Notes: a model not told the origin generated them from the letters alone. Shown: positions 332 through 46,323, counted from the first letter of the stretch. The stretch: 64,000 nucleotides of DNA from Chiloscyllium plagiosum (GCF_004010195.1 NC_057713.1:43734349-43798348), one strand, 5' to 3'. Numbers and translations: made by a program.

Positions 332-563
332 AGAAGAAAGTGAGGACTGAAGATGCTGGAGATCTGAGTCAAGAGAGTGTTGCTGGGAAAGCACAGCAGG
401 TCAGGCAGCATCTGAGGAGCAGGAGCATTAATGTTTCAGGCATAAGCCCTTAATCAGGAATGTGTTCATCCATTCCTGATGAAGGGCCTATGCCCAAAAC
501 GTTGATTCTCCTGCTCCTTGGATGCTGTCTGACCTGCTGTGCTTTCCCAGCAACACACTCTCA
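332..563. mobile_element. Inverted PLE pLTR pair (family A), 13-bp TSD
   Basis: Minus arm with tail, then plus arm without tail; TSD tctttaagttatt at 319-331 and 564-576. Confidence 0.85.
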
Positions 564-975
564 TCTTTAAGTTATTGTAATAAAGTATTCCTATGGTGCT
601 GCAATACTGCTCTGATTCTGTAAATCTGTTCGCACCAATTTGGATTTTTTTTTTCATTTGATTACCAATTCCATGAGAATATTTGTAGACCTTACCTCGG
701 TGCAGCATCTATTGATCCATGTCTCAGCTTCCATTTCAGCATTGGCAGAGACCGATCAAATATCTGAGTGGAGGTTCAGACTAGGTCTGCAAAATTGGTG
801 CATATTGCCACACAAGCCCAGATTGGTGGAATTCAGTTTCAGATGCTACCATCATGGATGTGAATAGAAGGTCTCAAGGGGCTCTCATGTGTTCTAAGAT
901 TTGTCTTCCAGCAGATTATTAGGATTGTTGAAGTGCTACACCATGGAAGAAGAATTGACTGCCATCTCTCAGGAT

Positions 976-1091
976 TAAAAGTCACACAACACTGGGTTAT
1001 AGGCCAACAGGTTTATTTGGAAGCACTAGCTTTCGGAGCTCTGCTCCTTCAGCAGGTGGTTCACCCCAGTCCAACACCAGCACCTCCAAAT
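976..1091. mobile_element. Inverted PLE pLTR derivative (family B), 13-bp TSD
   Basis: Minus-strand body with a hammerhead-like core (~1027-1055), joined to a plus-strand tail (caccccagtccaacacc...aaatc); TSD catctctcaggat at 963-975 and 1092-1104. Confidence 0.8.
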
Positions 1092-1304
1092 CATCTCTCA
1101 GGATGACTGCATTTGGGCTCTAACCATTGCCATTCCTTCGGTACCCTCGCTGATCAGCCAGCCATTTTACTGCAAATATGTCATGGCGGTACTGTCTTGA
1201 GTTTGCAAATTCCACTGGATCAAGGGCACCCTGCAGCGCCACCTATAGTTTCTCCAACCATCAGCAGCCTCCCTCTGACCATCTTGCAGCAATGGAATAA
1301 CACT

Positions 1305-1440
1305 AAATAAAAACCGACAGAACTGCAAATTCTATAAATCAGAAACAAAACTAGAAATTACTGAAAAAGCTCTGGCAGCATCTGTGGAGAGAAATCTGAT
1401 TTAACGTTTTTGGCCGAGTGACCCTTCCTCAGTTCTGACC
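1305..1440 (-). mobile_element. PLE pLTR-derived short repeat (family C)
   Basis: Reverse strand reads ctgaggaagggtcactcggccaaaaacgtt...cagatgctgccagagc...; similar copies near 8675, 11080, 15150, 30178, 41690, 42850 and 51100. Confidence 0.7.
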
Positions 1441-2227
1441 CATAACCTCCAGGAATATTACAGAAATATTGACGGTATTTTCTTGAGCCTGGATTAAAAA
1501 CTCGAAATGTGGAAGCCAACTTTAAATCTAGGCAGATTCTGCAATTTGCAAACTGCAGAGTGGAACAGACGGTGTTTTTGCAGCCAGGTCTTGAATAATC
1601 AAAACCAGACAGGACTGAGACTACCTGGCCAGTGCTAATGGCCACATTGTTTCAGAACAAACTGTTGTTTACATCTCCAGTGAACCTCTTATGTTCGAAA
1701 AATGTTAAACAGATTTGTGGCATTAGGTCAGGGGGAGTCCAAAGGCTTGATAAGGACAGCTCTTGACAGTTGAAGGTTCAAAACCATGTTTCGTGACCTC
1801 TAAATATGGAAAATATTCACCTCAATGGATCTTCCAGTCCCCACTCAATGGCTACAGGATCTTTGAGAAAGGTGTGAAGAGAGGGATAAAAGGGATAACC
1901 TGCAGCCCCAGCTCACTCTGCTTTTTCCACTTTCTTCAACAGTGTCTCCAGAGAGCACCTTCAACTGGCAGCTGAGCCGCACAGGATCTCCACCTCCTGA
2001 CCAGGCCCAGAAGAGCACCTCAGTGAGATCACCTTGGTGAGATCACCTGAAGACCAGGACCAGCCCTAGACCAGAGAGGAAGCACAAATCAACAACTGGA
2101 TATCCTGAAAATTCACCATCAAAGACCAAGGAGCAGCCTATCCTTATCTAATGATTATTACTAATATTTTCAGATGAACAATTCAGACACAGTGGTAGGA
2201 ACCTGTAGATAGAATATAGCAAATCCA

Positions 2228-2600
2228 CAGAACCACATAACAGACCTTTCAGTCCAACTTGTCCATGTCGACCGGATATCCCAACCCAATCTAGTCCCAC
2301 CTGCCAGCAATTGGCCCATATCCCTCCAAACCCTTCCTATTCATATACCCATCCAAATGCCCCTTAAATGTTGCAATTGTACTAGCCTCCACCACTTCCT
2401 CTGGCAGTTCATTCTAAATACATACCACCAACTGCATGAAAACATTGCCCCTTAGGTCTCTGTTATATCTTTCCCCCCTCATCCTAAACATATGCCTTTA
2501 GTTCTGGACTCCCCCACCCCACAGAAGAGACATGGTCTATTTATCCTATCCATGCCCCTCATGATTTTATAAACCTCTATAGGTCACCTCTCAGCCTCTG
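2228..2600 (-). mobile_element. CR1-clade (HER1-like) LINE 3' fragment
   Basis: Reverse complement of the shark CR1 3' end also seen on the plus strand at 55221-55885. Confidence 0.75.
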
Positions 2601-3220
2601 ATAGCTAGTATAGATTTGAAACTGTTTACTTTGAGATTTAAAATGGTTTACTGAAAAATCCTGTGAAGAAATTCATTGAGCTTAATTAAAGTACAATAGT
2701 ACAGACTGACAGATATTGTTTTTCATTGATAAAGTGTTTAATAAAGTTGTGTTGGACCTTCCCCTGACTCCTGTCCCCTTCGTCTACCTCACTGTGTAAA
2801 CAGTTGCTCCTGAGAAAGAGAGAAGGCAGCTTAGAGATGTTCAATGAGGATTACCTCAGAATAAGGAGTTTAGTAGTAGTTTCAGAATAGAAGCATTTGA
2901 GCATAGGGGTTATTTAAAGCTGGGAAATTGTTAATGTCAATTTTAATGAAGACTCCAGGAAAGAGGCTATCAGATTCTCAAGACTGGGGTTTAAGCCACA
3001 GCTAAATTAAACTCCACTGATACAGCCTGTTACCACTATTAGTCTGTAGTCTTCCCTAAACTGTTTCCAACACATTTGCATCCTTCCTTAAATATGGTGA
3101 CTAGAACTCCAGATGTGGCTCTGTATAACCAACGTAGAGCTTCTCTACCATTGTATCCAATTGCCCTCATAACAAGTTATAATATTCTGTTAATTGTCCT
3201 AATTACTTGCATTACCTGCA

Positions 3221-4171
3221 ATTCCTCCGCCTCCGCCGTATCTGCTCCCAGGAGGACCAGTTCCACCACAAAACACACCAGATGGCCTTCTTCTTTAGAG
3301 ACCGCAATTTCCCTTCCCACGTGGTTAAAGATGCCCTCCAACGCATCTCGTCCACATCCCGCACCTCCGCCCTCAGACCCAACCCCTCCAACCGCAACAA
3401 GGACAGAACGCCCCTGGTGCACACCTTCCACCCTACCAACCTTCGCATAAACCAAACCATCCGCCGACATTTCCGCCACCTCCAAACAGACACCACCACC
3501 AGGGATATATTTCCCTCCCCACACCTTTCCGCCTTCCGCAAAGACCGTTCCCTCCGTGACTACCTGGTCAGGTCCACGCCCCCCTACGACCCACCCTCCC
3601 ATCCTGGCACCTCCCCCTGCCACCGCAGGAACTGTAAAACCTGCGCCCACACCTCCTCCCTCACCTCCATCCAAGGCCCCAAAGGAGCTTTCCACATCCA
3701 TCAAAGTTTTACCTACACATCCACTCATATCATTTATTGTATCCGTCCTCATCTTCCGCCTCGGAACACTTCAACCCCAGGGCATCAATGTGGACTTCAA
3801 CAGTTTCCTCATTTCCCCTTCCCCCACCTCACCCTAGTTCTAAACTTCCAGCTCAGCACTGTCCCCATGACTTGTCCGGACTTGTCCTACCTGCCTATCT
3901 CCTTTTCCACCTATCCACTCCACCCTCTCCTCCCTGACCTATCACCTTCATCCCCTCCCCCACTCACCCATTGTACTCTATGCTTCTTTCTCCCCACCCC
4001 CCCCCTCCTCTAGCTTATCTCTCCACGTTTCAGGCTCACTGCCTTTATTCTTGATGAAGGGCTTTTGCCCGAAACGTCAATTTCGCTGCTCCTTGGATGC
4101 TGCCTGAACTGCTGTGCTCTTCCAGCACCACTAATCCAGAATCTGGTTTCCAGCATCTGCAGTCATTGTTT
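3221..4171 (+). mobile_element. Young 5'-truncated Penelope-like retroelement (RT C-terminus/linker, deleted GIY-YIG, pLTR with hammerhead)
   Basis: ORF QFLRLRRICS...PCHRRNCKTC...IIYCIR, then LIFRLGTLQPQGINVDF in another frame; C-rich 3' region; ttgatgaagggcttttgcccgaaacgtc at 4051-4078. Possible TSD ttacctgca (3212-3220 / 4172-4180); inserted in a minus-strand CR1 fragment. Confidence 0.9.
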
Positions 4172-4479
4172 TTACCTGCATACTAACCTTCTGCAACTTA
4201 TCACTATGACATCAAACAAAGCTCAGCACAGGCTGGGAGAACAACACCTCATTTCCCACTTGTGGGACCCTGCAACCTTCTGGGCTCAATATTGAGTTCA
4301 ACAATTTTAGGGCCTGAACATCCTCTTCCGTGTCCTTATCCCAAGCCCCACACACCACACCTTTACATCACATGGGTTGCTACCATAAACAACCCATTAT
4401 TAGCTAGTTATGGTCCCCATTAGCAACTATACATTCTCCCAGGCTGATCTTTATCCATTCTTTTGTCTTCCCAGAGACA

Positions 4480-4860
4480 GAACAAAACTGCAGATGCTGG
4501 AATTCAAAATAGACAAACAGAAAGTTGGAAGAACACAGCAAACCAGGCAGCAGCACAAGGTGGAGAAGTCAGTGTCTCGGGTATTAACCCTTCTTCAGGA
4601 CTAGATGTGGGGTAGGGGGAGTTACAATAAAGGGGGGGAATTGGGGTGGGGAGAGTAGTGGGATGGTAAGATAGTGATAGGTGGACACAGGTAGTGGGCA
4701 CAACCTGGTTGGTCGATGGGAGGGATGAATCCAGTTGGTGGCTAGAAGGAAGGGTTGTTCAGAGGAATAGAAGGGAGGTGAGTCTGGAAAGGGTGATAGG
4801 GGATGGGTGAGAAGGTTATTTGAAATTAGAGAACTCAACGTTAAGCCCTCCAGGCTGAGG
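4480..4860 (-). mobile_element. 3' end of another Penelope-like family (family D)
   Basis: Reverse strand: end of endonuclease region, C-rich tract, ctgaagaagggttaatacccgagacac core, then ...tttccagcatctgcag-like tail. Confidence 0.7.
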
Positions 4861-6341
4861 CCTACAGCAATTTCTGAGATTATATATACTTTTTATTTAT
4901 GTGTGGGTAACCAGGAGATTGCACATTTGTCACCTGTGGAGGTCTGGAATGACCTGATGATGCGGCAGCTCAATGCTGAAGGATGTGTTAAGGTCACTGG
5001 AATAGATTCCAGTTCCATGTGGGGATGTGGCTTTTCCTGTCATTGCATCCTGAGTCATCTTTGTTTTTACCATTCTAACATTTACAGATGGTTATACTGC
5101 CTGTAGTATTTCCAATGAAACACCATTGTTTGGTGTCACACTGGCCTCAGTTGGTAGCATCCTCAGTTGCATCCTCTGCCCCGTTATTACATTGGAACAT
5201 TGACGTTAAGGACAGGGATAGGCCACTTGATTTTTCAAACCTGCTGCACCATTCGATAAAATCATGGTTGATTTGATTATGAATTTAACTTCACTTTCCC
5301 ACCTGCCCCCTAACCCTTAATCCCCTCGTTTATCAAGAAGCTACCTAATTAAGCCTTGAATAAATTCAAAGTCCCAGCCTCTCTCAAGGGAAGAGAATTC
5401 TACACACTGTGTCCCTGAGTTTTAGACTGGTCCTTCAGAGGAAACATCCACACTCTCAAGTCCCCTCAGGGCCTTATACACTTCAATATGTTCATCCATC
5501 ATTCTTCTAAATCCTAATGGTTATAGGCTCAGCCTATACAAACATTTGTCTGAAGCTCAGCTCTTCATCTGGCCTAGATTATCCTTGATGCTCCCAACCC
5601 CCATCATTAAACTGCCATCAGCACTCATGATCTCCCCTTTATTATGCTTGATCTGCTTTTGGTAGGATCTAATCTTCCACGTTGTTCAGCTCCCCCTTTC
5701 TATCTCCCATGACTCCTTCTTAGCACTCTCATGAACTGACCTCCCTCCCTCGGTCATGCATTCTCCAACCTCACAAGCAGCAGATACCCTCACTCCAAGA
5801 TGTCTCAAACTCCCTGGACATCCCTGTCAAACCAGCTCAGCATCCTCATCATTGGTCCAAAAATAAATGCCCTTAAAACAAAGCCAACTTCTACTCAGTC
5901 CAGGAAGACTACCTCACCTATTGCACACTACTTTTAACCAGCCAGGAACCTGAAAATTTACATTTTTCATGTGCTGCTGATTTGATAGCAAAGCAATCAT
6001 TTAATGTGGTGACCATGTGTTTTAATGAGTGCGCATTACATGTTAATGTCTTAAAACTAGGTTCCTAGTGACTGCAATTAAGAACCATGATTTCCTATTA
6101 ATATGTTGCCAACTCATTCCCAACTTTCATCCTGCCATTGGAAAACTGATATTTTGCTTTTCACAAAATTAAGTGCCCCTACCCACTTTTGTTTCCTGCT
6201 CCCAGATTTAGCATTGCATTTAGCCTATTTTGAAATAATTAACTAAATGGAGGCGAATACCAACCTTTAGCCATTATTCCACATGAAATAAGTACACTTT
6301 AAGAGTTCACATTCAGTTGAGCATGCAGAAAACCTTTGTTA

Positions 6342-6381
6342 CTGAACCACATAGAGGCTGAACCCCATAGAGGCTGAACCC
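6342..6381. repeat. 16-bp tandem repeat (~2.5 copies)
   Basis: ctgaacc(a/c)catagagg repeated. Confidence 0.85.
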
Positions 6382-8779
6382 TACGCCTGCAGAATAGTAT
6401 TTAGAAAGTAAAATTACTGTATTTGTTCAAATTGCTTTTGATATATGATGAAAGGTGTGGTTTCTGGGATTCACAAAAGGATATTGCTTGTTCATTTTCA
6501 TTTCTTTTTATGATAATAAAATTTCAAAAGTTTATTCTAAAATCTGGAAATTCCAAAATGTGTATCCCTTATCAAAGAAGAGATAGCATGATATCTTTTT
6601 CTTGAGACAGGTCAACGATCCAAAGGCAAATAGCAGATATTTTCAGGAAAAGTTTCTGTGCATCCTAGCTGTGAGTGTGAACAATGTGCTGCTCATTTTC
6701 ATCTGAAAAATGCTTGGCAGCTGAAAATCGATGTATTTTAATTCTACATTGAAATATTGAGAACGTTAAACAGATACATACGTAAACAAAGGTTATTTTA
6801 TGGAACATTGGTGGAGTGTAATTTTTATTTCTCTGAGTTCAGGTCAATTTCCCAAACAAATAAAAGTCATAATTCACTTTCCCTTTTTGGCATGTGATCC
6901 TCTGAGTGATATGTTACAATGAATGCTTTCTAAAAGAGATAGTTTCCAAGCTGTTCTAATGTGAAGAAATTCTGACTGGACCTTAATATTTACTGAGTGA
7001 GCCTTTGTGAAGTTATGCTTGTGAACAGTGCAATCTATGATATGACTGAATTTTCCATCTGAAAAGTAATTAAGGACAATTAGTAAAGATAATCCCTTAA
7101 TCTACTAAAAAACAGATCACGATGCATTAACCCCTCAAAATTAACATCTTGCCATATTTTTTGTAATTGGCCTCTTTTATTCCATTCTGTTTTCATTTCT
7201 TTTTAAATTTCTGGTTTTAACACAGATCTGATTTCCATTTTCCAAGTTTTTTTTTCATATGGGCTGGTTCTCAGTTTGAACATGAATAGGGAAGGCTTCT
7301 ACAGACTCGTTAATGATGCGGGAGAGAAATTATCCCTGATTATTATATTTACCAATAAAAATGCTTCCAGATGAGATATATCAAATGTAAAAATTCAGTT
7401 TGCCATTACAATTTTACTGAACTGTCCATTAATTATAGTGATTACCAGTGATTTCATTTACTTTAAAAAGATATAAAATTACTTAAAATACTGTGAAAAG
7501 TTATGAAGAAAATTGCAGGCAACTTGCCTTGCTGTCTTCCTAGTACCATATTACCAGCCAAATCTCTTTGTAACACAGCAGCATATGGCTCAGAACAATG
7601 AGACTTCACCCAGCTAATAGGGTTAAATTTAATTTTAAGATTTTTTTTATTCTAATGCATTCTTAATAAGGATGATTACAAGTGTAGAGGGCACTTTACT
7701 ACTCGCCATATATAACACCCAAATTTATTCACTTTCCTGTGTAGATAACAAAGACATGCTGTCTCACTGAAAGACCCAGTAATCACCATCTCCCTCCTGA
7801 TTTCAATTCCCACAGTATTCTGTGTAACCACTGAGCCTGCTCAAACTCATTTGTGAAACCAACAGGACCATTGTATAATTAAGGCCCATAAATGGAACAT
7901 GGACAAGACTATTAGATCTTTTTTTAAGGGGGTCAAAAAGGAAAGCTGGATAATCAACTAAAGGAGTTGAACACTGCCATCTTGTGGGCAAACTTTAATT
8001 TCTATGATGCTGAGTAGTTTTTTGCATTAAGGAGTTTTCAAGGTTCATATTTAATACAGAAATATCCTCTCAATTTTTAAATGTATACAGACATTATAAA
8101 TCTTCTCAGTTTCTTCTTGTCACATTATTCAATTTAATAAGCATATTTTTGCATTTTTTGTCATTACACTGAATGTCTTACTAAATTCTAAATTGAATAC
8201 ATTTAATCCCTTTGCCCATTTTATTCTAATATTCTAAAATGTCTGCATCCTTCTACCTCTTAGGTACGCTAAGTTTAATCCAATTCCCCAATTCAGCAGG
8301 CATGTCCTTATTTTACAGCGGAGTAAATTGCTGTGCTCAACTTACTTGCTCTTAGGTAAGGATATGATCGTATAAACAAATGAATTAAGAGCTTGAGTAG
8401 GCCACTTGGCCCCTTGAGCCTGCTGTGCTATCCAGTAAGATCATGATTGATCTGATTATTCCATGTTCCTACTGCCCTTCACTCCCTTGCTTATTGAGAA
8501 TCTGCATACCTTGTTCAAAGATTCTGCACCTTCAATGCCTTTTAAGGAAGTGCAAGAAACTATATGAAAAAAATTCTCCCCATTTCTATCTTAAATGGGT
8601 GATCTATTATTTTCAAATAGTGACTGCTAATTCCAGATTCTCTCACAACAGGAAGTAGTTTTCTATTCTTCCACAAAAATGCTGGAAAAACTCAGCAAGT
8701 CTGGCAGCATCTATAGTGTGAGAAATAGAGGTAACATTTTAAGTCCAATTGTCTTACTTTCACCTAGTCCATCCTTGAC

Positions 8780-9830
8780 TCTTTCCTTCCTTTCATTTCC
8801 TTCTCTGGTTTCATTTTTGGGAATGAGCTAACTCCACAGTTGCCTAAACTACATTTCTTCACACTCTGCTTCCTGCAAGGTCTCCATTCCATTCTCCCAG
8901 TTTCTCCATCTCCGTCGCATCTGTCCAGACGATGCAGTCTCCCACAGGGTTATTTCCAATATACCTTTGATTTTTTTCTCAACTGAGGATTGCTCCCAGT
9001 ATGGCTGACTGGGCCCTCAGCTATATCCAATCTATTTCCCAGTTTTAATCCTCACCCCTTTCCCTCCCCACAAAGAATCAAAAGAGTTCCTTTTTTTTCA
9101 CTTTCCACCCAGCCCCCAGAGGAAAAACACAATTAAGAAAAAGGTCATATTATTGTACTTGTTAGTTTTACGGCATATGAGTCAGATCAGTACATGTCAT
9201 TCGCAGATTTTCCTCTGTTTTCCCACCTGGGCAACATCTGCCTTCAAAGGAACATTCTCCACCATTGCAGCCACCTCCAGCAGTGTACCAGCACCAAATG
9301 CACCCCCTCCCCTCCCCTCCCCACCCCCACTCCCCTGACAGCATTTCACAAGGACTGCTCCCTTCATGATACCCTTGTTTACTGCTCATGACTTCCAGCA
9401 CTTTTTCACCCATCCATGGTACTTTCTTATCAATCAAAAGGTATAAAACATCCTCCATCGTACTTTATATCTTCCATTCTCATTCTCAAGGCCCCAAATA
9501 TAACTCTTGGTGAAGGGCATTTTACTACTTTTAATCTAGTCTACTATATTAGCTGTTCACAATGCAGTCTACACATTGGTAAGATCAAATGCAGACTGGG
9601 TAAATGCTTTGCAGAATACCTCTGCTCTGTCTGCAAGAATGATACTGACCATCCAGTTGCTTGCCATTTCAATACACCATTTTGCTGTCATGGTAACATT
9701 TCTATCCAGGCCTGCCATAGCGTTCCAATAAAGCCCAAAATGCAACCTGGAGAAACAGCACCTTTCCTTCTGCTTAGGCACTTTACACCCTTTGGGACTT
9801 AGTATTGAGTTCGACAACTTCATACTATTG
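8780..9830 (+). mobile_element. Old degraded Penelope-like element with GIY-YIG remnant
   Basis: SIPFSQFLHLRRIC-like segment near 8880-8925; NLVYYISCSQCSLHIG...RLG..FAE.L...HPVACHFN in ORF 9416-9802; many frameshifts. Confidence 0.8.
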
Positions 9831-9849
9831 AACTATGACATGATTTTGA

Positions 9850-10840
9850 CAAATATGGGGGCAAATACATGGCAGGACTTCAGTGTAATTGGGACAAGTT
9901 AAATAAGGGGGCAAATACATGCCAGAAGCAGTAATAATGTGGATAAATGTGAGGTTATCTACTTCAGCAGCAGAAATAGGCAGGCAGATTATAACTTAAA
10001 GGCAATAGATTGTGAACGAGGGAGGTGCAATGAGACCTGGCTATCCTGAAAGTAAGGAGAAAGTGAGGACTATAGATGCTGGAGATCCTGATAAAGGGCT
10101 TATGCCCAAAACATCAATTCTCCTGCTCCTTGGATGCTGCATGACCTGCTGTGCTCTTCCAGCACCACATTCTCTATCCTGAAAGTAAGCATGCCAATGC
10201 AGCCGGAGGTGAAGAAGGAAAATTATATGTTAGCCTTCATAGTGAAAGGATTTGACTACAGGAGCAAGGATGTCTTGCTGCAACTGTAGGGCACTGATAA
10301 GACCACACCTGAAATGTTCTGTGCAGTTTTAGTCTCCTTATCTGAAGGAGGATGTTCTGGCTATTGAGGGAGTGCAAAGAAGGTTAACCAGAGTGATGCC
10401 TGGGATGGTGGGATTGACATATGAAGAGAGGCTGAATCAGTTATAACTATATTCACGAGGGAAGATCACATAAAATAAAATACAAATCTGACAGGTTTAG
10501 ACAGGAAAGGTGCAGGAAGGATATTGTCAATGACCGGGGAGTCCAGAACCAGGGGTTAAGGATAAATGGTAGGCCTTCTGTGACTGAGATGAGAAGGAAT
10601 TTCTTCACCCAGACAGTGCTGAGCCTGTGGAATTCTGAACCACAGGAAATTGTTGAGGCCAAAACATTGAAACCCTTCAGGAAAGGTGTAGATAAAGTTC
10701 TTAGGACTAAAGGGACCAAAAGGATATTGGGAGAAAGTGAAATAGGGTACTGAGTTGGATGACCAGCCATGATTATATTGAATGGCAGAGCAAGCTCAGG
10801 GGGCTGAATGGCCTCCTCCTATTTTTTATATTTCCATGAG
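9850..10840 (+). mobile_element. CR1-clade LINE 3' fragment
   Basis: Degenerate NVDKCEV, RPHLE.CVQFWSP and NFFTQ.V..LWN motifs, plus the 3' UTR gggctgaatggcct. Confidence 0.8.
10057..10173. mobile_element. Inverted PLE pLTR derivative (family A), 16-bp TSD, nested in CR1
   Basis: Minus-strand tail only, then a plus arm starting at ctgataaagggc; TSD ctatcctgaaagtaag at 10041-10056 and 10174-10189. Confidence 0.85.
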
Positions 10841-11944
10841 GTCTGTCCTCTGTTTTGATTAACCACTTCCCCCAACCCTGCACCTTGCTTACATGAATTT
10901 ACTTTCAACAGAGCTGATCCATTTTCTATTAATACCAGTCATATATATCGACTCTTGGTTCTCATCTTTCTCTACTAACATAAGCATTCACTGTTTTTTT
11001 TTGCTCTGACGTGCCTTTACCATCTGTTCCAATTGCCTCTCCTCCTCGATTCCACAGAATAGAAACCAAAACTTTATTTTTGAAGAAAAGTTATATTAGC
11101 CTCAAAACATTAACTCTGCTGTCTCTGCACAGATGCTGCACAGTCTCTCCAGAACTTCCAGTTTTAAAACGTTTAGTAATCACTTTCTAAACTGCTTCCA
11201 GTGCATTTACATTCTTCTTTAAGGAGATTAATCCAGATATGGCCACACCAATGTCCTGTGTAACTTAAGCTAAATCTCTCTTCTTTCATTTTTTTTAGGT
11301 TTTCTAATTGTTTACTGTACCTTCATGCTGAAGTTTTGTGATTCGTGTACTAACACACCTAGATCTCAGACTTCAGAGCTCTGCAATCTTTCATTATTTA
11401 GATAATATACTTATTTTTTATTCTTCCTTCTGAAATGGACACATTTCACATTTTCCTACATTATGTTCCACTTTTCAGGCTTTGGTTCTGTCCATTCACT
11501 CAACCTATCTATATCCCTTTATAGCTTCCTTCTGTCCTCTCCACAACATACTTTCCAGATTATTTTTGTATCATCAGCAACACCAATTTAAATTCAATTC
11601 AATTAGGGAAGGGAATTCTTGGGTTCATTTTTTAAGGCAATGTCTTGGCCAATTAGAGTTAACTCTCCTGATTTAAAATTTAACCAAAGCTTGGCAGTTA
11701 ACTGTCAGTCATCATTAACTAGTGAATTACCAATGGCAAAATCTTCCGTAGAATCCACTTGTCAACCAGTCAGACCATTCCTCCTGTGCAGTACAAATGC
11801 TGCTTTCCATTTACTTAGTAATTCTTATGAATTGCCCTGATGAGTACAAATTGAAAAGTATCAACAAAGTGGGTTTATTTTTCAGCAACATTCCAATTTG
11901 GTACTGCCCAACAACTATTTGCAATTAATATTAGTATTCAACGC

Positions 11945-12830
11945 ATATGCAGAAAACTAGCTTGCAGGTAAAACAGGTAGTAAGGAGGGCAATTGAAAAT
12001 TATTGCTAAAGGAATGCAATCTAAGAGCAAGGGAGTATTGTTGCAATTGTGCAAGGCATTAGTGAGACTGCATCTGGAGTACTAAGTAGTTTTGGTCCCC
12101 TTACTTGAGGAAGGATGTAGTTGTATTGGAGGCAGCTTAGAGGAGGCCCATCAGAATAATTCCAGAGATGAAAGGCTTATTTGATTAGGAGAGATTAAGC
12201 AGTTGAGGCCTATACTTGCTAAAGTTTAGAAGACGAGGAGAAATTTACTTGAAGTATGCTAAAGGGGATTGAAAATGTCGATGTAAAGTGGATGTTTCCT
12301 ATGGTGGAGAGTGTGGTGCTTGGAAAAGCACAACAGATCAGGCAGCATCCGAGGATCAGGAAAATCAACAGTTCAGGCAGAAGCCCTTCTTCAGAAATTA
12401 CTCCTGATGAAGGGCTTTTGCCCAAAAGTTTGATTCTCCTGCTCCTCAGATGCTGCCTGACCTGCTGTACTTTTCCAGCACCACAGTCTTGACTCTAATC
12501 TGCAGCATCTGCAGTCCTCACTTTCGCCTAGTTTCCTATGGTGAGGCAATTTAGAATGAGAGATCATAGTTTTAGGATAAGGGGTGACAGATGTAAAACA
12601 GAGATGAGGAGGAATTACTTCTGTCAAAGGGTTGTGAATCTGTGGGATTTAGTACTCCAGAGCATGCTGGACACCAGCATGCTGCAAAAATTTAAGGAGG
12701 ACATAAACAGATTTTTATTACTAATGAGTTAAAGGGTGGTAGTGAGTGGGCAGGAAAGTGAACTGAGATGAGATAGCTCTGAGAGTATTAAATGGCAGAG
12801 CAGGCTCGAATTTTGCTTCTAGTTGTTATG
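11945..12830 (+). mobile_element. CR1-clade LINE 3' fragment
   Basis: Degenerate LVRLHLEY...FWSPYLRKD and RNYFCQRVVNLW motifs. Confidence 0.75.
12307..12530. mobile_element. Inverted PLE pLTR pair (family A), 13-bp TSD, nested in CR1
   Basis: Minus arm without tail, plus arm with tail; TSD gtttcctatggtg at 12294-12306 and 12531-12543. Confidence 0.85.
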
Positions 12831-12839
12831 TTAATATTC

Positions 12840-13830
12840 CTTAGTAGCCTCATTATTTCCTCCTCACAACTTGCTTTCATAGCTATCTTTGTGTTATCGA
12901 CAAATTTAGCTACCACTCATCTAAGTTATTTACATAATGTGTAAAACATTGGAGCCCCAGCAGTGACTGCTGCAGCATATTATTTTTTGCATCCTGCCAG
13001 AAAATAATATATTTATGCCAGTTCTCTGTTTCCCGTTAATTAGACAATCTCTATCCATGCAATTGTGTCACCTCCTTAACTATGATCATTTACTTGCCAC
13101 AATAAAATTTGATGTGGCACCTTATCCAATTATTTCTGAAAGTCTAGGTACAATATCCCCTGCTTTCCTGTTTAAAGCATGCTACTTCCTCAAAGAACTC
13201 AAACAGATTATTGAAACATGATTTCCCTTTTACAAAGTCACATTGACTCTGCCTGATTACTTAGAAGTTTTGAATTTTCCCGATGACAATTTAAATAATA
13301 GTATCTGGTATCTCTCTTTTGATAGACATTAAGCAGATTGGCCTGTGCCTATCTCCCCTTTTGAATAAAGGAGTTATATCCACCATCTACCAATCTGCTG
13401 AAACTTCCCCAAAACTAGGGAATTTTGGAAAACTAAAACATTGATTATTTCCCTAGCCACCTCTTGTAAGACTCCAGGTGAGTTCTATCAGGGCTTGAGG
13501 ACTTGTCAGTCTGCAGTTCCAACAATTTACGCAGTATCACCTGCCTGTTGGTTGTACTTATCTTGAGTTCTTCCCTCCCATCCATTTCCTGAGTTATAGT
13601 TATTTCTGTAATGTTGCTAATACACCCTATAGAGAAAACCATTGCAAAATAGTATTCAATTCATCTACTATATCTCCTTACCTTCCATTATCAGTTCCCC
13701 ACACTCACTTTCTGTAGAATCAATGCTCACTTTGTTAACACTGTTTTTTAAAAATATTTATGGAAACTTATTATTTGTTATTATATTTCCTGCTGGCTTT
13801 CTCTCATAATCAATGTTTTGCTTACATTTT
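12840..13830 (-). mobile_element. Degraded CR1-clade LINE (RT region)
   Basis: ORF 13445-13642 (...LRKLLELQTDKSSSPD..H...) resembles CR1 ORF2. Confidence 0.65.
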
Positions 13831-14064
13831 AATCTTTTAGTTTTTTAATATATTTTATCCATAATACATTGTGATCATATTCTTTACTGTAATAACACAA
13901 AATGGTTGTGACTTTATAAAACCTTTTGATTATGTTCCTACACTGATCTTTATTGTGCTGATAAACTGATCCACTGTTATAAATGAATTTCTCCTATTAG
14001 GTACAAACTCTTGCTATACATAACAATTCCAATATAATTATACCAGACTTTAGTACTTCAACAG

Positions 14065-14296
14065 TAGTCATGATTTGGAGATGCCAGTGTTGGACTGGGG
14101 TGTACAAAGTTAAAAATCACACAACACCAGTTTATAGTCCAACAGGTTTAACAGGAAGCACCAGCTTTCGAAGTGCTGCTCCTTCATCCACCTGATGAAT
14201 CACTATCACCTGATGAAGGAGCGTCGCTCCGAAAGCTAGTGCTTCCAATTAAACCTGTTGGACTATAACCTGGTGTTGTGTGATTTTTAACTTTGA
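14065..14296. mobile_element. Inverted PLE pLTR pair (family B), 10-bp TSD
   Basis: Minus arm with tail, plus arm without tail; TSD acttcaacag at 14055-14064 and 14297-14306. Confidence 0.85.
14207..14241 (+). ncRNA. Minimal type I hammerhead ribozyme motif (PLE-associated)
   Basis: cac-CTGATGA-a-GGAGC gtc GCTCC-GAAAG CTA^gtg: complete core, 5-bp stem II, palindromic AGCT stem III, cac/gtg stem I. Confidence 0.7.
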
Positions 14297-16319
14297 ACTT
14301 CAACAGAGCATTAAATTTCGATGGTGCATTTTGAAACCACAACCTTTTAATATCTGGAATGGCAAGAATCTGAGATACTTTCCTACAGTATTTAAGCAAT
14401 AATGTTCTCTCTGATAGCTCCTGTGTTCATAAATTAAACAAGTTTGGGAAATCTAAACCTCGTTTCAATTGGATGTAAGCTTGCAGCACAAAATGCAATG
14501 TAACCTATCTCTGTCATTTGTTAGGCTCTCGTTTAGGACAGCAGACATGAATGGCAGTTGGGAAATAATAAGGCAATCTGGTTGTGGAATCATAAACCTA
14601 GTGCATTATACTTGCATGTTGTGGATCTGAATTAGATTGTTCAATTATCATTGCAATAGCCCCATTATTGAAGCAACACTAAACTTTGCTAGATTGAGAT
14701 ACAGATATTACGTTATGTGGCTATAAAAGTGGCAGCTTTTTGAGATAAGAATTAGACTGAGAAATCTTGATTAAAACGTGGTAGTTGGATGCAGTCCAAT
14801 TTAACAGAAATTTCCAAAAATTGATAATCCCATATCAAAATATGTAGTATGGACATAAATGGAGTAAGAGAACTTTCCTGATGCACAAATATGATGCACT
14901 GTTGAGATAAAGTAGAGGCAATGTTTTTGCACTTCCGGCTTACATTGTGTTCCTAAACTCAGACTACCTCTCCCACTAATATTGTACCTTCCAAATTTCC
15001 TGGCCCACCACATCTCATTTATAGTGACTCACAACATAACACAAAACCTTCTGAATGTTCAAACAGAATATCAGAACAGTGCAGCTCAGAGATGAGTCTA
15101 GTCATCATAGATCCTCCCCAGTATTACAATTATATTATATAGAACACAAAAATGAACACAGAAAAAGCTGGAGAAACATAGCAGGTCTAGAAGTATCTAC
15201 AAAGAGAGAGAAACAGAATAAACATTTCAAATCTCCAGAACTTTTTTTTTAAGTAATACTGCACAATTTATGACACAGATATGCCTGTTTAAGGTGTATT
15301 CTCATATCATATTTTGTTTCAGCTCAGTTTGTAAATTAGGGAAATTCCCTGAATAACACATTTTTTTTCTTTTAGTGTGTAACTGAACATGCCCATTCCT
15401 TTTTAAAACAAATCATCACTGTGTTCACCATCGCTCCCAATCTGCTTGCTCTATCACGTTCACTAGTTTCCTCTCAAAAACCTTCACTGCTTCCAGTTCA
15501 TTGCTTTTGTCTGCTGAGCCCTTACTACTCATGAGTGCTGGGTAGTGGGTTGGAGAAATTGGTTTGGTTAGAAGAAGGTAGCAGGAAGCTGGATGGTCAG
15601 GCCATGGAAGCAATAAGTGAGAGGATTAAGAAAGGAAAGTGATGTGTTCGGAGAGGGAGGCAGTGAGGAGAAGGGATGGGCAAGATGGTGAGTTCAGTGA
15701 GAAGGTCAATGAGCGGGAGGGAAGAAACAGCAAGCAGGAGGTAAGTTATTAAGAATTAATGAGAAGACTTTTGAGCCTGTTAAGTTCCAGGCAACTAATA
15801 TTATTTTAATGTAAAAGTTGAAGTCTGGAACATAACCCATCTTTATTACATGTTTTATCATGGGAAAATGATTTTTATTTTAGCAAGATATTATTTAGCG
15901 CATTTTTTTTAACGAACACATTGGGAATGTTTAACAAAGGATATCTGTAATTCAAGGATATTTATACTGTTTAGACTCTGTTAGTTCATGAATAATGAGG
16001 TGTTCCACTGACCCATTTAAATGAACAATTAACAGTTCAGCAGCATCTGCAAAGGTAACAATTACAGCTATTAATCTCTATCTGAAATCAAAATAAACAC
16101 TCTCTGGCAAAGAAAATCTTCACCTGTACATGTGTGAATTGATTTGAATGGACACTTACAGGGCCTGGGAGCTAAAGCAGAAGCTATTTTCAAGGCCTTT
16201 TACAAATGCATATCACTGACCAGAAACACTTACAGTATGATAACTGACTAACTACTGGTACTTCCGTGAAGTTGCTTACATTAAGTGAGATGAGTTGTTG
16301 TGTTGGGCACCTAAAAAGT

Positions 16320-18301: not shown

Positions 18302-18337
18302 GAGCAGTGGAGACTCAATCCTGAGTATGTTTAATGT

Positions 18338-18417
18338 CTTTTGCCCGAAACGTCGATTTTGCCTGTCCTCGGATGCTGCCTGAATTGCTGTGCTCTTCCA
18401 GCACCACTAATCCAGAA
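18338..18417 (+). mobile_element. 80-bp PLE pLTR fragment, 12-bp TSD
   Basis: Starts inside hammerhead stem II (cttttgcccgaaacgtc) and has no tail; TSD tatgtttaatgt at 18326-18337 and 18418-18429. Confidence 0.85.
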
Positions 18418-20949: not shown

Positions 20950-21069
20950 GGGCGAAAGTGAGTACTGTAGATGTTGAAGATCAGAGTCAAGATTAGAATG
21001 GTGCTGGAAAAGCACAGCAGGTCAGGCAGCATCCGAGGAGCAGGAAAAATGACGTTTCGGGCAAAAGCC
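20950..21069 (-). mobile_element. PLE pLTR fragment with tail, 15-bp TSD
   Basis: TSD ctttctatatatcca at 20935-20949 and 21070-21084. Confidence 0.85.
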
Positions 21070-24561: not shown

Positions 24562-24754
24562 AACTCGTGGCTGATATGTTTTTCAACCCCATTCTCCTCT
24601 GTTCTGCTCATAACCCTTGATTCCCTTAGTCCACGCCTCTATTCTTCCTACTAAAATGCATATGCTCACACTTGCTTACATATATTCCATACCACTTCTT
24701 TGCCCACTGTCATAGGCCTGGCCCAGATACCTACATGGAGTCAAGACTTAAGAG

Positions 24755-29763: not shown

Positions 29764-30001
29764 GGTAAAAACAGGGACTGCAGATGCTGGAAACCAGAGC
29801 CTAGATTAGAGTGGTACTGGAAAAGCACAGCAGGTCGGGCAGCATCCGAGCAGCAGGAAAATCGATGTTTTGGGCAAAAGCCCTTCATCAGGAATAGAGC
29901 TCTATTCCTGATGAAGGGCTTTTGCCCGAAATGTCGATTTTCCTGATCCTCAGATGCTGCCTGACCTGCTGTGCTTTTCCAGTACCACTCTAATCTAGAC
30001 C
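29764..30001. mobile_element. Near-perfect inverted PLE pLTR pair, 15-bp TSD, nested in CR1
   Basis: Arms meet at the palindrome gaatagagctctattc; TSD cattaccttgcaaag at 29749-29763 and 30002-30016. Confidence 0.9.
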
Positions 30002-34024: not shown

Positions 34025-34178
34025 AACTAGGTAAAAGTGAGTACTGCAGATACTGGAAACCAGAGTCTAGATTAGAGTGGTGCTTCATCAGGAAGGGCTT
34101 TTGCCTGAAACATTGATTTTCCTGCTCCTCAAATGCTGCCTGACCTGCTGTGCTTTTCCAGCACCACTCTAACCTAGA
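34025..34178. mobile_element. Rearranged inverted PLE pLTR pair, 14-bp TSD
   Basis: TSD catcaattatgttt at 34011-34024 and 34179-34192; the minus arm is internally deleted. Confidence 0.85.
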
Positions 34179-40713: not shown

Positions 40714-40886
40714 TATATTGGAAAGAAATATTTCTTGAATTTTGAGGCTTGAATTTACATGAACCACCTGCCTTGTGCCTTTCTTCACATAATGGGCTCT
40801 ATTTTTGTGCTAGCAAATTAGATTTTAATGACAATGACTCAAATATGCTCTTGACAACCTAAAGGAAGAATGTGTGGGGCTATGGT

Positions 40887-41230
40887 AGCCATGATGTGGA
40901 AGAGCCGGTATTGGACTGGGCTGGACAAAGTTAAAAATCACACCACACCAGATTATAGTCCAACTGGTTTATTTGGAGCACTGGTCATTCAGCAGGTAGC
41001 TGTGGAACAGGATCATAAGACAGAATTTATAGCAAAATATTACAGTGTCATGCAAGTGAAATGATATATTGAACAAACTTTCAGTTGCATGACACTGTAA
41101 TCTTTGGCTATAAATTCTGTGTCTTATGATCCTGTTCCACAGCTATCTGATGAAACAGCAGCGCTCTGAAAGCTAGTGGTTCCAAATAAACCTGTTGGAT
41201 TGTAACCTGGTGTTGTGTGATTTTTAACCT
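40887..41230. mobile_element. Long-armed inverted PLE pLTR pair (family B)
   Basis: ~150-bp inverted arms around a ~16-nt spacer (~41062-41078); imperfect TSD ggg(g/t)ctatggt at 40876-40886 and 41231-41241. Confidence 0.85.
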
Positions 41231-44229
41231 GGGTCTATGGTGACAGGCTTTATAGAACCAACAAACCAAGTAGTCAGATATGCAGAATAATTACAGCACA
41301 AATTCAGCTTATGGTGTCTGTGCTGTCCCTCCAAAGGAACTAAGTGCCACTCCAACCCATGTCATCATGGCCCCACACATTCTTCCTTTTTAGATAATAA
41401 TTTAATTCCCTCCTGCATCCACCATTCTTTCAGGAAGTTCATTCCACATCCTATCCACTCATTGCATGAAAACATTCACATGTTGCAATTGTTCCTTTCA
41501 CTAAGGACCTTAAACCTGTGGTCTCTCATTTTCAATCATTCCACCAGTGGGAGTGGAACCAGTTTTTCCCTATTTACTCTGTCCAGACCACTCTTGATGT
41601 TGAATGAGTCTATCAGGTCTCCTCTCAACACTCCCTTCTCCAAAAAATAACAGTGCCAATTTCTCCAATCTATCTACATGACTGAAGCCTAAAACAAAAT
41701 ACTGCAGATCCTGGAAATCACATTACCACTTTTAGATCAATGATCTTTCTGAAGAATTGATACTGACATACAGTTCTGGTGCAAGGTCACCAATTGGAAA
41801 CAGGAATTCATTTTCTGCCACAGATGTTTCCTAATTTCCAGTATTTTGGTTTTAAATGAAAGTATCTGTTGAACAGATTTGTGCACCATTGTCCTTTTTC
41901 TCAGTGGCAACTTAAGATGAAAATTTGAAAGCAAATTGAACAGATGAAAAGTATCTAATTTAACAACTGCAATACAAAAAAAAGGTACAATTAAAGCAGA
42001 ATGACAACATTGCAACTGTCGACTAACACACACAACTTATTTTAAAATTTGGCAGCTCATTAATAACTTTAAGTGGAACAAAATAAGAAACAGAAGCACT
42101 AAGGGTGAATCAATACATTAGGCAGGAAAATCATTTTGAATTCATGGTACATCTGTGAAAGGCAATAATAAAATAACAGATGTTGCAGCAAATTTCACTG
42201 CCAGCTGCCCACAATTCCTAACATATACTCTTGCCAGCTCACCAGTTGTAAAGGAATTTTGCATTTAGGATGTCAGAAATGAGACCAGCTGATATAATGT
42301 TCTTTCGCTCTGTGGGGCAATAATATTATGGCATGTCTGCATTTACTCAAAACACGTGCACTCAATTTAAAACAGCTGATAACACAAATATTATTGCCAG
42401 CTATTCGGCTACGTACAAATCCACGTTTCATTTATTCAAGATCTGCTTTTGTTGGCTGAATTCAAATCTATAATAGAAGAGCTGTAAGGCCTTTGGCTTT
42501 ATTACAAGTTCCTACATTCAAAATGCTGCAATTTGTATCCAGTTTAGGCAAACATCAAAGGAGGATAGCCATAAGACAGACACCTGTATTGACTCATGCT
42601 GATATCTGTATGTACAAACAAAATAGTGAGACATGATGAGTAACCATTTTATAAAGACATGAGGCCTTAGAAAAATCAAAGATATTACATGTATTTGAAT
42701 GCTGTGAAGCATCAAATATGCAACTTCTGTACATACATTTTGCGTGGTAATGCAGCTCTCATCATATTGCTTAGCACTATATTTTGCATGCTTCTGCTGC
42801 TTGCCGTGCAAGCATTTCTGTATTTTAGTTTTGCCAGGTGTACAGGAAGGAAGGGTTTCTGGACCTGAAATATTAACTCTGATTTTTCTTCACAGATGCT
42901 ACCAGACCTGCTGAGCTTTCAAGCAATTTCTGTTTTTGTTTCATATTTCCAGCATCTGCAGTTATTTCGGTTTTCATTTCTAGGAGTGTCTGGTGCTGCT
43001 CTTGGCATGTCCACCTGCATTCCTCACCAAACTAAAATCAATCTCCTGGTTTAATTATATTAGTAGAGTGAGAGATAACCTAGTTGTGAGGTTACAGATT
43101 GTGGTTGAATATAATGCCGTGTTGGTGGACTATAGTGCCTCATTGATATCCAGTTTTGAATTCAAAATCTGTCTGAAAATCAGAATCTGCCTGATTTAGC
43201 AAGCTGATAATATCACACAACATGATGGAGGGCATCCTCAATATGAAGCTGGGGCTTCTTCTTCACAAATACTTTGTGGTCCTTACTCTCACTGATAAAG
43301 TCAAGGACAGACACATCTGATGGACAGATTAATATGGAAAGCATACTTGGCATTTCCTTAAGACCAACAGGATATATGAGCAGATTCAAGCCATTCAGCC
43401 CATCCAGTTTGCTCTGCCATTCGATCACGATCCTTATGTGCCTTAACCTTATCCTCCTACTTTCTCCCTGTAATGCTTTATCTTCTTACTAAGCAACAAG
43501 CTATCTGTCTCTGTCTTAAATACTTGTTGTTCCTTCACCACCTGCCCCAGACCCAGAAGATGAGGAACGTCCTTTCTAACATAGCCTGCTCAATCAGTAG
43601 TCGTACTAGTGAGCTACTCTTGACACTGACATGCCCCACATGGAGTACATTCCTCACTCAGTGCTTCCTGAAAGTGGTGTCTGACATTGAGGATTGCTGA
43701 GGGGGAGCAAGAGGTTATAGCCAATAAAATGTTTACTTATCCACAGCATCTGGAGTTGTGCACTTCCTGGGCAACTGTACGCCACTGTATCACCAACACT
43801 GGTGGGACTGTCCAACAGGTAGCATGGTCATTGAATGGTCAACAAGGCTGTGTTTGCTGTTGCCATTCAATCCATTCAGTTTTATTCCATTGTTTAGGAT
43901 TCACTGTGGCTGTGTGGCTGGTTATACTGTCGCAGAGGGCAGTTAAGAGTCAACCATATTGCTGTGACTCTTCAGTCACATATATGTCTGGCCAAGTAAG
44001 GCTGGCAGAATTCCTTCAGGGGAATTAGTGAACTCGATAAGTTTTATGATAATCATCTGTGGTCTTATTTTTGTCATTAGACGGGCATTTAATGGAGGAT
44101 TGATTAAACTCATATCTCACCATTTGCTATGGTGGGATTTGAACCACAACATTAGTCTGTGGTTCTGGATTAATACTCCAGTGACATTACCACTATGCCC
44201 ATCGCCTCCCTCAATGGGTTGAGATGGTG

Positions 44230-45130
44230 TGAGTGGGGGGAGGGCACATTGGCATGGATAAAACTAAATTGTCTAACTAATAGGAGATAGAGGCAAAATA
44301 GGCATTTTTCTTCTGGTTTACAAGATGTAATGAGTGGTCTGCCACCAAGATTAGTGTTGGGCTCACCTTTCAACAATACATATAAATGATTTGGATGAAT
44401 GAACAAAGGTATGGCTACTAACTTTTCTGAAGAAACAAAGATAGGTTGAAAAGTAAATTGTGAAGGAGACCAGAAAGTGATAGAGGTTGGTTAAGTGAGT
44501 GAGTAAAATTTGGAAAATGGAGCATAATATGTGAAATTGTGAAATTGTCCACTTTAGGTGGATGAATAAAAGTGCTTTCTACTTAAATGGTAAGAGATTG
44601 CAGAGCTCTGAGATGAACAGGGTCCTGGATTTATGATTCAGTTATACATGACATTGAAAAGACAACATCTGAAATACTGTGTGTGTTATGTTGGCCTTCT
44701 TATTTAAAGAAGGATGTAACTACACTGGAAGCAGTTCAAAGATGGCATACTATACCAATACCTGGAATGGGCAGGTTGTCTTATTTAGAAAGGTTGGACA
44801 ATCTGGGCTTAAATCTGCAGGAGTTTAGAAGAGTAAGAGGCAACTAGAGAGCTCTTGACAGGGTAAATGTGGAGAGAATGCTTCCTCTTGTGACAGAATC
44901 TAGAACTGGGGTCATTGTCTAAAAGTCAAACATTGCTCATTTAAGAAAAAGATGTGACTTTTTTTTCTCTCATAAGGTCATAAGTCTGTAGAACTTTCTT
45001 CCAAACGTTTGGTGGAAACAGATTTGTTAAATATTTTTCACACGGGGCAGATAAATTCTTGGTAAGCAAAGGGGCAAAAGATTATCAGTGGAAAGTGGGG
45101 AATGTGGAATTGAATTTACAACTGATCAGG
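44230..45130 (+). mobile_element. Degraded CR1-clade LINE 3' fragment
   Basis: Degenerate SGLPPRLVLG, IYINDLDE, CEIVHF and PSYLKKD motifs. Confidence 0.75.
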
Positions 45131-46251
45131 CATCAGGCCCTCGTAACCAGGTGAGATTGGCATCAAAAAGAATAAATAAAATATTAAATCAATTACTGCA
45201 ATATTTTAATGACTTTGATCTCCTGTAATAAACATAATTCTAAAATGCATTTTTGGTAAGTAAGCAGTAGCTAGCTCATATATGACCAGCAAAGAAACAA
45301 AATTCCATTTCAATATTGGGCAAAATTTTGTATTTTGGGCTGCAATTTGTCAGGAACAGGTTTCTGACATCACTTTTGCCTTGATTGGCCAAATGGTGAC
45401 CAGGGGTCCACTCACCACCTAAATCAGTATGGCAGTTGAACTCTCAAAGCTGGAAGGTCAATAGAAGGCCCTCCAGCACACAGGGGGTTGCAGGTTGAGG
45501 CATTGTCCCAGCAGTTGAAACATATGTGAACTATAGAAGTGGCCATTTGTGCCAGACCACAATTGTACCTGCTACAATGTCAACCACTACCAGTTTTTGG
45601 TTGGGGTAGATGGCTGCCACTATCATCTTTCTTTAATGGGTCTATCATTGATAGAAGAAAACTACAAATGAGACTTAATGAAATTAGGCTCTCTCATAAC
45701 CAAGATGTAGTTTATTGCATAATCGCAATCAAGAACAAGGTACATTACAAAGTTAGATATTTATACTAAGACTATTGGGAGATGTGTGGATGTAGTTTAT
45801 GTAGTTTATTTATCCTACAAGATCCTTAGATATTCTGCCTTTCTCCACCAAGTCTTCATGACATCTTCTGATTGGGTAAAGTCTCCAACATTTATCCTTT
45901 CAGAACTGTTACTTTATACAACTTCGCCCTTTATCCATTTCTGTATATAATTACATTTACTATTATCCTATCTTCCCCAAGTCTGACTTGACAAATTCAG
46001 GCAATCTGGAAGTTTCACAATTCTTCCAGAACATAATCTCTTTGGATTAAGAAAATTCTGTGGCTTGATTGTTGACCTTGACTCTGTTCTTGACTTAGTC
46101 TATGAAGTCATGTTACACAAATTTTCTTTTGTAGGTCCTTCACTGAGGATGCCATTCCTGCTAAACCACATAGTCCATTACCTTCTTTAGATATTTCTTA
46201 AAATCCTGAATTTATTTTGCATAGGAATTCTTCATTACTGAATCAGGTAGC

Positions 46252-46323
46252 TAGGAGAAAGTGAGGACTGTAGATACTGGAAATCAGCATTGTGAGTGTG
46301 GTGCTGGAAAAGCACCACACTCT
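46252..46323. mobile_element. Minimal fold-back PLE pLTR derivative (family A)
   Basis: Minus-strand tail, then gagtgtggtgc-tggaaaa-gcaccacactc (11-bp stem, 7-nt loop). Confidence 0.7.

Follow-up and report, generated by a model that had tools for sequence, protein, structure and literature searches.

In this work, we describe nine short inverted pairs of element ends in one 64,000-nt stretch of the genome of Chiloscyllium plagiosum (GCF_004010195.1 NC_057713.1:43734349-43798348; this whole stretch is called the window below). The pairs are real and ordinary insertion stubs of Penelope-like elements (PLEs), and their architecture has already been published. We put at roughly two in three the probability that priming from both target strands, at two internal sites of the element RNA, produces these single-event, one-tailed stubs flanked by a target site duplication (TSD). 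The sample is small, as only nine inverted pairs occur in this single window.

Architecture of the inverted pairs

All nine pairs stand head to head with their 3' ends outward, and both arms of each pair belong to the same pseudo-long terminal repeat (pLTR) family. They measure 72-343 nt and lack an open reading frame (ORF; Table 1). BLAST and profile searches place six of them in family A and three in family B, in agreement with a first-pass annotation of this DNA that had described two dissimilar pLTR families. The same annotation had listed exact TSDs at seven insertions, and we found direct repeats of 13, 13, 16, 13, 10, 15 and 14 bp abutting precisely these. Such repeats lie beyond chance: when random boundary pairs were given the same +/-4 nt tolerance as the real insertions, an exact repeat of at least 10 bp occurred in 0 of 2000 pairs, the longest being 9. 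The imperfect TSD reported at 40887-41229 is also there, as 12 bp with one mismatch, against a null maximum of 11 (700 pairs, one mismatch allowed). One TSD of 10-16 bp encloses both arms in eight of the nine pairs, which supports a single event for each TSD-flanked pair, as had been proposed.

The tail, which is some 35-40 nt long in both families, is present on exactly one arm in every pair (9/9). Since single arms use either end freely, nine discordant pairs out of nine have p<=0.002 at any tail frequency, and the set with exact TSDs gives 7/7 (p=0.008). The pair list was drawn from the full profile catalogue of the window, so that two-tailed or tailless pairs would have shown up. The one-armed tail of the first-pass annotation is therefore upheld, and random tail placement, which had been set beforehand as the outcome that would speak against it, was not what we found within the window.

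Element ends fall into two zones ~35-40 nt apart, each of which is used by single-arm copies too. Relative to hammerhead C3, family A pre-tail ends lie at +89 to +99, and the tail ends of this family spread over ~6 nt; in the coordinates drawn, a few TSD bases are counted in with some single-arm ends. In family B, tail ends lie at +121 to +126 and pre-tail ends at +80 to +87 from the same base. The two defined end positions that had been claimed thus exist as two sites, but not with single-base precision, the ends being zones of 6-10 nt. These ends are fixed genome-wide, judged by read and contig exits at the tail and pre-tail positions. From the family A tail end (149), 8851 reads leave into unlike flanks (agreement 0.34; run X19), and 654 contigs do so from the family B tail end (14070; agreement 0.36). 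At the family A pre-tail zone, ~12 nt past 12485, 555, 510 and 612 contigs exit into unlike flanks in three runs.

Seven single-arm family A copies with their own 9-15 bp TSDs had been left out of the first-pass annotation. Three are tail-ended and four are pre-tail-ended, and because these four end there against their own TSD, the pre-tail site is able to prime alone. A reading of the opposite-facing neighbours 49725/50413 and 52730/53656 as long inverted units was rejected, since each copy has its own TSD.

The inner junctions vary, as had been stated: no two are alike, and 36 of 36 junction comparisons lie at background, with 9-14 of 24 nt identical. Identical inner junctions, the named sign of a fixed miniature inverted-repeat transposable element (MITE), were not seen among the nine pairs. 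The centres include a blunt palindrome (29764, whose arms join at 29899/29900 with zero spacer, both ending at -8), spacers of 8-17 nt (332, 12307 and 40887), a short tandem duplication (14065, which has an intact minimal hammerhead at 14210) and a 5-nt overlap at a template hairpin (46252). In the 332 pair, both arms end at -5 from hammerhead C3, and in the 40887 pair they extend ~70-77 nt upstream of the hammerhead. The antisense core piece inside 34025 is likely a remnant of an internal deletion in the left arm. Arm overlap ranges from ~20 to >100 nt in seven pairs (only ~20 nt in 46252 and 34025) and is absent from 976 and from 10057, where a template gap of 7 nt separates the arms. As the arms of 976 and 10057 have no template sequence in common, these two are inversions rather than fold-back hairpins. 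Thus, the shared fold-back layout that had been described holds for the inverted, 3'-outward arms of all nine pairs, but the hairpin does not hold for these two.

Proposed priming from both target strands

We propose that the element protein would nick both target strands 10-16 nt apart, the staggered nicks leaving 3' overhangs that later become the TSD. The two target 3' ends would then prime reverse transcription at two separate internal positions of the RNA. One active site presumably begins at the tail end and its counterpart at the pre-tail position, the two starts bracketing one strand, the 3' one, of a helix predicted in the RNA. Host repair would join the two cDNAs end to end, the joint being blunt, microhomology-mediated or padded by a few additional bases, and a single-arm copy would result where only one primer was extended. 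More tentatively, arms that stop 2-8 nt before the hammerhead core may mark the point at which the template RNA begins or reverse transcriptase (RT) stalls. The hairpins would be neutrally decaying by-products and not a functional class.

Behind each TSD copy lies antisense element sequence whose start corresponds to a 3' position of the RNA; at the left side it is read on the top strand, at the right side on the bottom strand. By the established logic of target-primed reverse transcription, this geometry places both target 3' ends as primers and makes the 3' overhangs the TSD. Target and template overlap by 1-5 nt at the priming points: at least 1 nt in 14 of 22 arms (null mean 6.7, P=0.002) and at least 2 nt in 7 of 22 (null 1.6, P=0.0002), with one arm unscored as no reference ran further. 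This enrichment suggests brief primer-template pairing at the target. The arms of 976 and 10057 are non-overlapping and nearly contiguous, as expected of twin priming on a single RNA from the description of L1 (PMC2912911); this classical L1-type geometry is seen in two of the nine pairs. The tail forms the 3' strand of a predicted 8-11 bp helix in both families. Finally, 9 of 20 family A arms stop 2-8 nt before hammerhead C3. The ribozyme cut site was rejected as the 5' end (0/20 family A arms start within 3 nt of it). In D. virilis Penelope the transcript starts inside the pLTR (PMC2377424), and by analogy such a start would explain these stops.

Much of this scheme has a precedent in the anole Poseidon protein (PAc), which in vitro cuts and extends both strands (Frangieh et al. 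2024, PMC11167929). PAc starts reverse transcription at two internal sites bounding the tail, and genomic ends fall on those sites; hammerhead cleavage is dispensable and the protein is a predicted dimer (PMC11167929). The shark copies resemble this system in having two tail-bounding RT sites and a hammerhead ~80-130 nt upstream, at whose cut site the element ends do not fall. They differ in that family A is Neptune-type, in that target/template overlaps of 1-5 nt are enriched and in showing no clear AT enrichment; an AT-rich target preference was not seen, the TSDs being 62% AT against 60% for the window.

The mechanism put forward in the first-pass annotation is probably correct, and most of it is in print already (PMC11167929); two-strand priming at two RNA sites remains the best mechanism. 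The further claim of a separate, programmed route to non-coding hairpins is not supported, since single-arm and ORF-bearing copies do not differ from the pairs in their ends or TSD sizes, two of the nine pairs form no hairpin and the arms of the long pairs are decaying (84-91% identity).

Points against and alternative explanations

Several observations weigh against two-strand priming at two RNA sites as we have set it out. No family B copy in the window extends to an ORF. The 46252 pair, as the first-pass annotation had noted, is without a clear TSD: the best exact repeat is 3 nt, and the longest common word between 55 nt of left flank and 400 nt of right flank is 7 nt. An empty orthologous site was found in 0 of the 15 joints listed of 14043 (four runs over 1-19000, with repeat reads overwhelming the tallies). 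The PAc study, whose scope did not extend to coupling, saw no strand difference in start site and detected no homology of the cut DNA to the RNA start (PMC11167929). Across 11 family A copies the tail helix is 93% paired without a single compensatory change, and folding better than z=-2 against shuffles was reached by just 2 of 13 copies. Among the symmetric pairs, 40887 stops far from the usual place. In five of the nine pairs the arms mostly overlap and end within a few nt of one another (spacers of 0-23 nt). As classical twin priming gives non-overlapping arms, these five would need two RNAs, a two-pLTR transcript or strand displacement; snap-back accounts for them just as well.

Snap-back, which we regard as unlikely overall, holds that a first cDNA begun at the tail end folds at its 3' end, copies itself and joins the second target strand; with protein bound at the nick, such a copy would end ~35-40 nt before it. 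Self-priming has been proposed for palindromic PLE junctions (PMC3846280), and several of our pairs look the part: 332, 12307, 29764, 14065 and 40887 have near-symmetric centres (0-23 nt spacers), that of 29764 forming a perfect palindrome, the 46252 junction lies at a template hairpin and the tail arm reaches as far 5' as its partner in most pairs. The arms of 332 also have two bases in common that occur in only 2 of 17-19 aligned copies. However, the tailless arms of 976 and 10057 hold 80-90 nt that are absent from the tail arm, so that neither can be a copy of it unless a later deletion ended near the pre-tail site in both. Snap-back also leaves unexplained the four single arms that end at the pre-tail site against a TSD, and both strands were extended in vitro (PMC11167929). 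Identity leaves the question undecided: within-pair against mean between-copy identity is 88 vs 83, 84 vs 84 and 91 vs 86, which is barely above background and so gives a shared template weak support either way. Twin priming and snap-back may both operate.

That the arms arrived as two separate insertions, or by later inverted duplication or gene conversion, with the TSD belonging to one of them, is very improbable, despite the very high copy number of these elements (the two families make up 4.9% of the window). One TSD surrounds both arms in 8/9 pairs, and all nine are head to head, of one family and one-tailed, while the independent neighbours at 49725/50413 and 52730/53656 each have their own TSD. 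A paralogous empty site of 40887 is without both arms. It lies at 41355-41389, matches the left flank of 40887 at 24/26 bases, contains the TSD-like 12-mer once and then continues with 4 bases found after the second TSD, not with the element. We give even less credence to a fixed non-autonomous element, MITE-like or retrozyme-like, that amplifies as a unit. The small size, terminal inverted arms and hammerhead motifs would suit it, and non-autonomous hammerhead elements derived from PLE pLTRs have been described (bioRxiv 10.64898/2026.07.22.740005). It is contradicted in this window, though, as every junction is unique (36/36 comparisons at background), lengths (72-343 nt) and TSDs (10-16 bp) vary, and neither a head-to-tail array nor adjacent same-strand copies occur among the 26 family A and 6 family B matches. 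The one-sided tail, moreover, prevents the termini from being inverted repeats of one another.

Two-strand priming thus remains our preferred explanation, and it can be taken a step further, with distinctly less confidence. It is possible, although we would not give it an even chance, that the integrating protein is an obligately asymmetric dimer, whose RT sites work at different fixed starts flanking the helix strand and so yield one tail per two-sided event; the short arms would then be run-off copies to the RNA 5' end just before the hammerhead.

Relation to published elements

The endonuclease-bearing (EN+) PLE unit has been described as an inverted, 5'-truncated copy beside a pLTR, with a 30-40 bp tail that is often one-sided (Craig et al. 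2021, PMC8557442). Rotifer PLEs have inverted pLTRs and an optional 31-bp tail and are flanked by TSDs of 8-10 bp; palindromes at their junctions and an empty allele have been shown as well (Arkhipova et al. 2013, PMC3846280), and inverted pLTRs and 3' extensions are routine in a curation guide (PMC8969392). The shark pairs are like the published EN+ unit in their head-to-head pLTRs with 3' ends outward, one tail and a single TSD, as well as in their palindromic junctions, their pLTR hammerhead and the RT-GIY-YIG ORF of longer copies. In contrast, they are only 72-343 nt long and ORF-less, and their TSDs are 10-16 bp rather than the 8-10 bp of rotifers. The tail asymmetry, 9/9 here, is given as 'often' or 'optionally' present in PMC8557442 and PMC3846280. 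Our data go slightly further than the published ones in the strict single tail per pair, the target/template overlap and the stop of the arms before the hammerhead.

Hammerhead pairs on opposite strands 100-700 bp apart, together with many solo motifs that stem from truncated PLEs, were reported by Cervera and De la Pena (2014). The shark motifs resemble those PLE hammerheads in having the core and helix II with a very short helix I, no real helix III and palindromic bases before the cut site. Relative to the Schistosoma consensus the helices are shorter (helix II 4-5 bp, helix I 2-3 bp), and cleavage is predicted from the motif.

The twin-priming model for L1 is said to be due originally to Ostertag and Kazazian. 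As in L1 twin priming, whose 5'-inverted insertions are described in Kojima 2010 (PMC2912911), both target ends would prime in the shark pairs, one arm is inverted and microhomology occurs at the priming points and the junction. TSD lengths are similar too, with an L1 peak of 14-16 bp against 10-16 bp here. In L1, however, one primer sits at the poly(A) end and the other at a variable internal site, giving non-overlapping arms, whereas the shark starts lie in two fixed internal zones and the arms overlap in seven of the nine pairs. A further preprint (bioRxiv 10.1101/2024.12.14.628481) deals with chromosomal foldbacks of L1 and does not enter into this comparison. Non-LTR retrozymes (bioRxiv 10.64898/2026.07.22.740005) are likewise short, non-coding and pLTR-derived, with a type I hammerhead, but they are head-to-tail tandem repeats, unlike the inverted pairs or solo stubs with unique junctions found here; the consulted main text of that preprint does not mention sharks. 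We found no report of shark stubs, or of coupling that gives one tail per event, in the open literature; subscription papers lay outside this scope, so that this absence shows little.

Assignment of the two families

Profile searches gave 26 family A and 6 family B matches in the window. An ORF at 3210-3746, upstream of the pLTR at 4043-4177, is 88% identical to the Chiloscyllium punctatum protein P0001, whose relatives have Pfam matches to RVT_1 and GIY-YIG: P0002 scores 23.2 bits for GIY-YIG against a cut-off of 22.6, and P0003 and P0006 are above the cut-off for RVT_1. Pfam searches with five window fragments, broken ORF pieces included, returned nothing relevant. A CX4CxxC motif is present in the window ORF, P0001 and P0002, and a CX2-5CxxC linker between RT and endonuclease defines Neptune/Nematis and is absent from Penelope/Poseidon (PMC8557442). 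On the strength of the ORF match, its relatives and the linker, family A is, in sequence terms, a Neptune-type EN+ PLE; Neptune would be preferred over Nematis because of the linker and because Neptune and Poseidon are the widespread vertebrate clades. The ORF-bearing copy lacks most of GIY-YIG through an internal deletion at 3746/3747, where 8124 reads continue differently. A decayed frame at 9392-9802 (+) resembles, by eye against P0001, the GIY-YIG region of an older Neptune-type element; it has no Pfam match. A full-length, partial-tandem pLTR-ORF-pLTR copy was not found within the window, and pattern scans for further copies gave 0 in viral contigs and 0 in metagenome contigs.

As an ORF was not found for family B, its membership rests on motif and architecture. 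A 34-residue family B frame upstream of and through the motif had an IPT/TIG repeat protein as its sole match, which was dismissed as chance. Both full family B tails end a few bases past an ATG (14065-14075 and 40887-40897, -), and this ATG may be the start of the family B ORF.

A minimal type I hammerhead occurs in both families, with a helix II that differs between families and older subfamilies and stays paired. The strict pattern (core plus helix II of at least 4 bp) was found at only three places, 24 and 29908 in family A and 14210 in family B; the hammerheads of the other arms are decayed or shortened. The description of these elements as hammerhead-bearing ends is accordingly sound for the motif in both families, but an intact strict pattern is confined to the three places. 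Rfam gave no hammerhead match in the window, and six sub-threshold microRNA matches from Rfam were dismissed as hairpin matches.

Age, copy number and other repeats

Many of the differences between the arms of the long pairs (identity 84-91%) are C>T and G>A. Such divergence would fit neutral decay with an age above the split from two related organisms, B and C (~2-3% diverged), with CpG decay inflating the figure. At 14065-14296, flank contigs from B and C reach 21-27 nt into the element at either outer end. This is below our 31-letter bridging rule, and the presence of both arms in the relatives, which would make this an old, shared insertion, is suggestive only. Read depth on the arms was 22,300 and 25,920, against ~0.1-3 on unique sequence, which gives a rough estimate on the order of ten thousand or more copies of each family. 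A joint of opposite strands at 55-425 was rejected as a fold-back, being an alignment split between two copies.

Seven older, diverged family A-like arms without TSD (1318-1432, 4487-4602, 8680-8713, 18807-18878, 30175-30260, 42848-42964 and 51102-51221) were kept out of the tail tally; by eye, five are tailed and two tailless. An inverted partner was seen in 0/7 and a clear TSD in 0/7, as against six pairs among 14 younger family A insertions. The start of several of them coincides with the hammerhead edge, and helix II has kept its pairing despite sequence differences.

In contigs from elsewhere in related genomes, family A tail ends (148, 4177 and 12529) are joined tail to tail to the family B tail end at 14070, the 4177-14070 joint being present in 22 contigs of X5, 2 of X7 and 6 of X8. 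Such joints could be due to a preference for tail-end insertion, or to nesting by chance among so many copies. The 40887 pair sits in an arm of an older inverted repeat of ~30 bp (40861-40886 and 41355-41389), the arms of which were ~125 bp apart before the insertion, and which is possibly a small MITE-like host element. To the left of the 18338 insertion, an 83-bp stretch (18219-18301) recurs 1.3 kb downstream at 19526-19608 with 98.8% identity. Inverted repeats of 22-53 nt at 24181-24985 and 51701-51951 look like two opposite copies of a different, putatively SINE-like repeat, which also occurs near 55226-55606. An open frame of 134 aa at 59349-59753 (-) had only two weak, unrelated Pfam matches; it resembles a fragment of an LTR-retrotransposon pol gene and may be one.

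Table 1. Element copies and one related site in the window, with positions counted from its first letter.
Feature	Position	Strand	Arms or content	TSD
Family A arm with tail, cut by window edge	1..150	+	any partner beyond window	any beyond window
Family A inverted pair	332..563		left antisense with tail, 332-462; 8-nt spacer; right sense without tail, 471-563	13 bp, 319-331/564-576
Family B inversion	976..1091		left antisense, pre-tail end, back to just before hammerhead; right sense, tail only	13 bp, 963-975/1092-1104
Family A single, with tail	3219..4177	+	ORF 3' part (RT thumb, CX4CxxC linker, GIY-YIG start, internally deleted), 3' untranslated region, pLTR	9 bp, 3212-3220/4172-4180
Family A inversion	10057..10173		left antisense, tail only (~31 nt); right sense, -2 to pre-tail end	16 bp, 10041-10056/10174-10189
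Family A inverted pair	12307..12530		left without tail; right with tail	13 bp, 12294-12306/12531-12543
Family B inverted pair	14065..14296		left with tail; right without	10 bp, 14055-14064/14297-14306
Family A single arm, without tail	18338..18417	+		12 bp
Family A single arm, with tail	20950..21069	-		15 bp
Family A perfect palindrome	29764..30001		left arm with tail	15 bp, 29749-29763/30002-30016
Family A pair	34025..34178		60-nt left tail arm; short antisense hammerhead-core piece; sense arm without tail	14 bp, 34011-34024/34179-34192
Family B inverted pair	40887..41229		left arm with tail; 17-nt spacer	12 bp, one mismatch
Inverted paralog of 40887 target, paralogous empty site	41355..41389	-	short match	
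Family A pair	46252..46330		tail arm ~60 nt; 13-20 nt arm without tail	none
Family A single arm, without tail	49725..49812	-		9 bp
Family A single arm, with tail	50413..50545	+		15 bp, one mismatch
Family A single, without tail	52730..53497	-	broken ORF 3' part	15 bp, one mismatch
Family A short single arm, without tail	53656..53712	+		12 bp

Implications

The steps of PLE integration that follow first-strand priming are still described as open (PMC11167929, PMC8557442), and these tiny, abundant, TSD-flanked units are clean single-event records of integration. Genome-wide counts could cheaply test whether the two target strands always differ in their RT start and where the template RNA starts, and the outcome would refine, not overturn, the published mechanism. 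For annotation, palindromes of this kind should be recorded neither as MITEs nor as microRNA genes. Furthermore, if the asymmetric dimer were true, the start of the transcript and the geometry of the integration complex could be read off many thousands of shark stubs, and this for two unrelated families.

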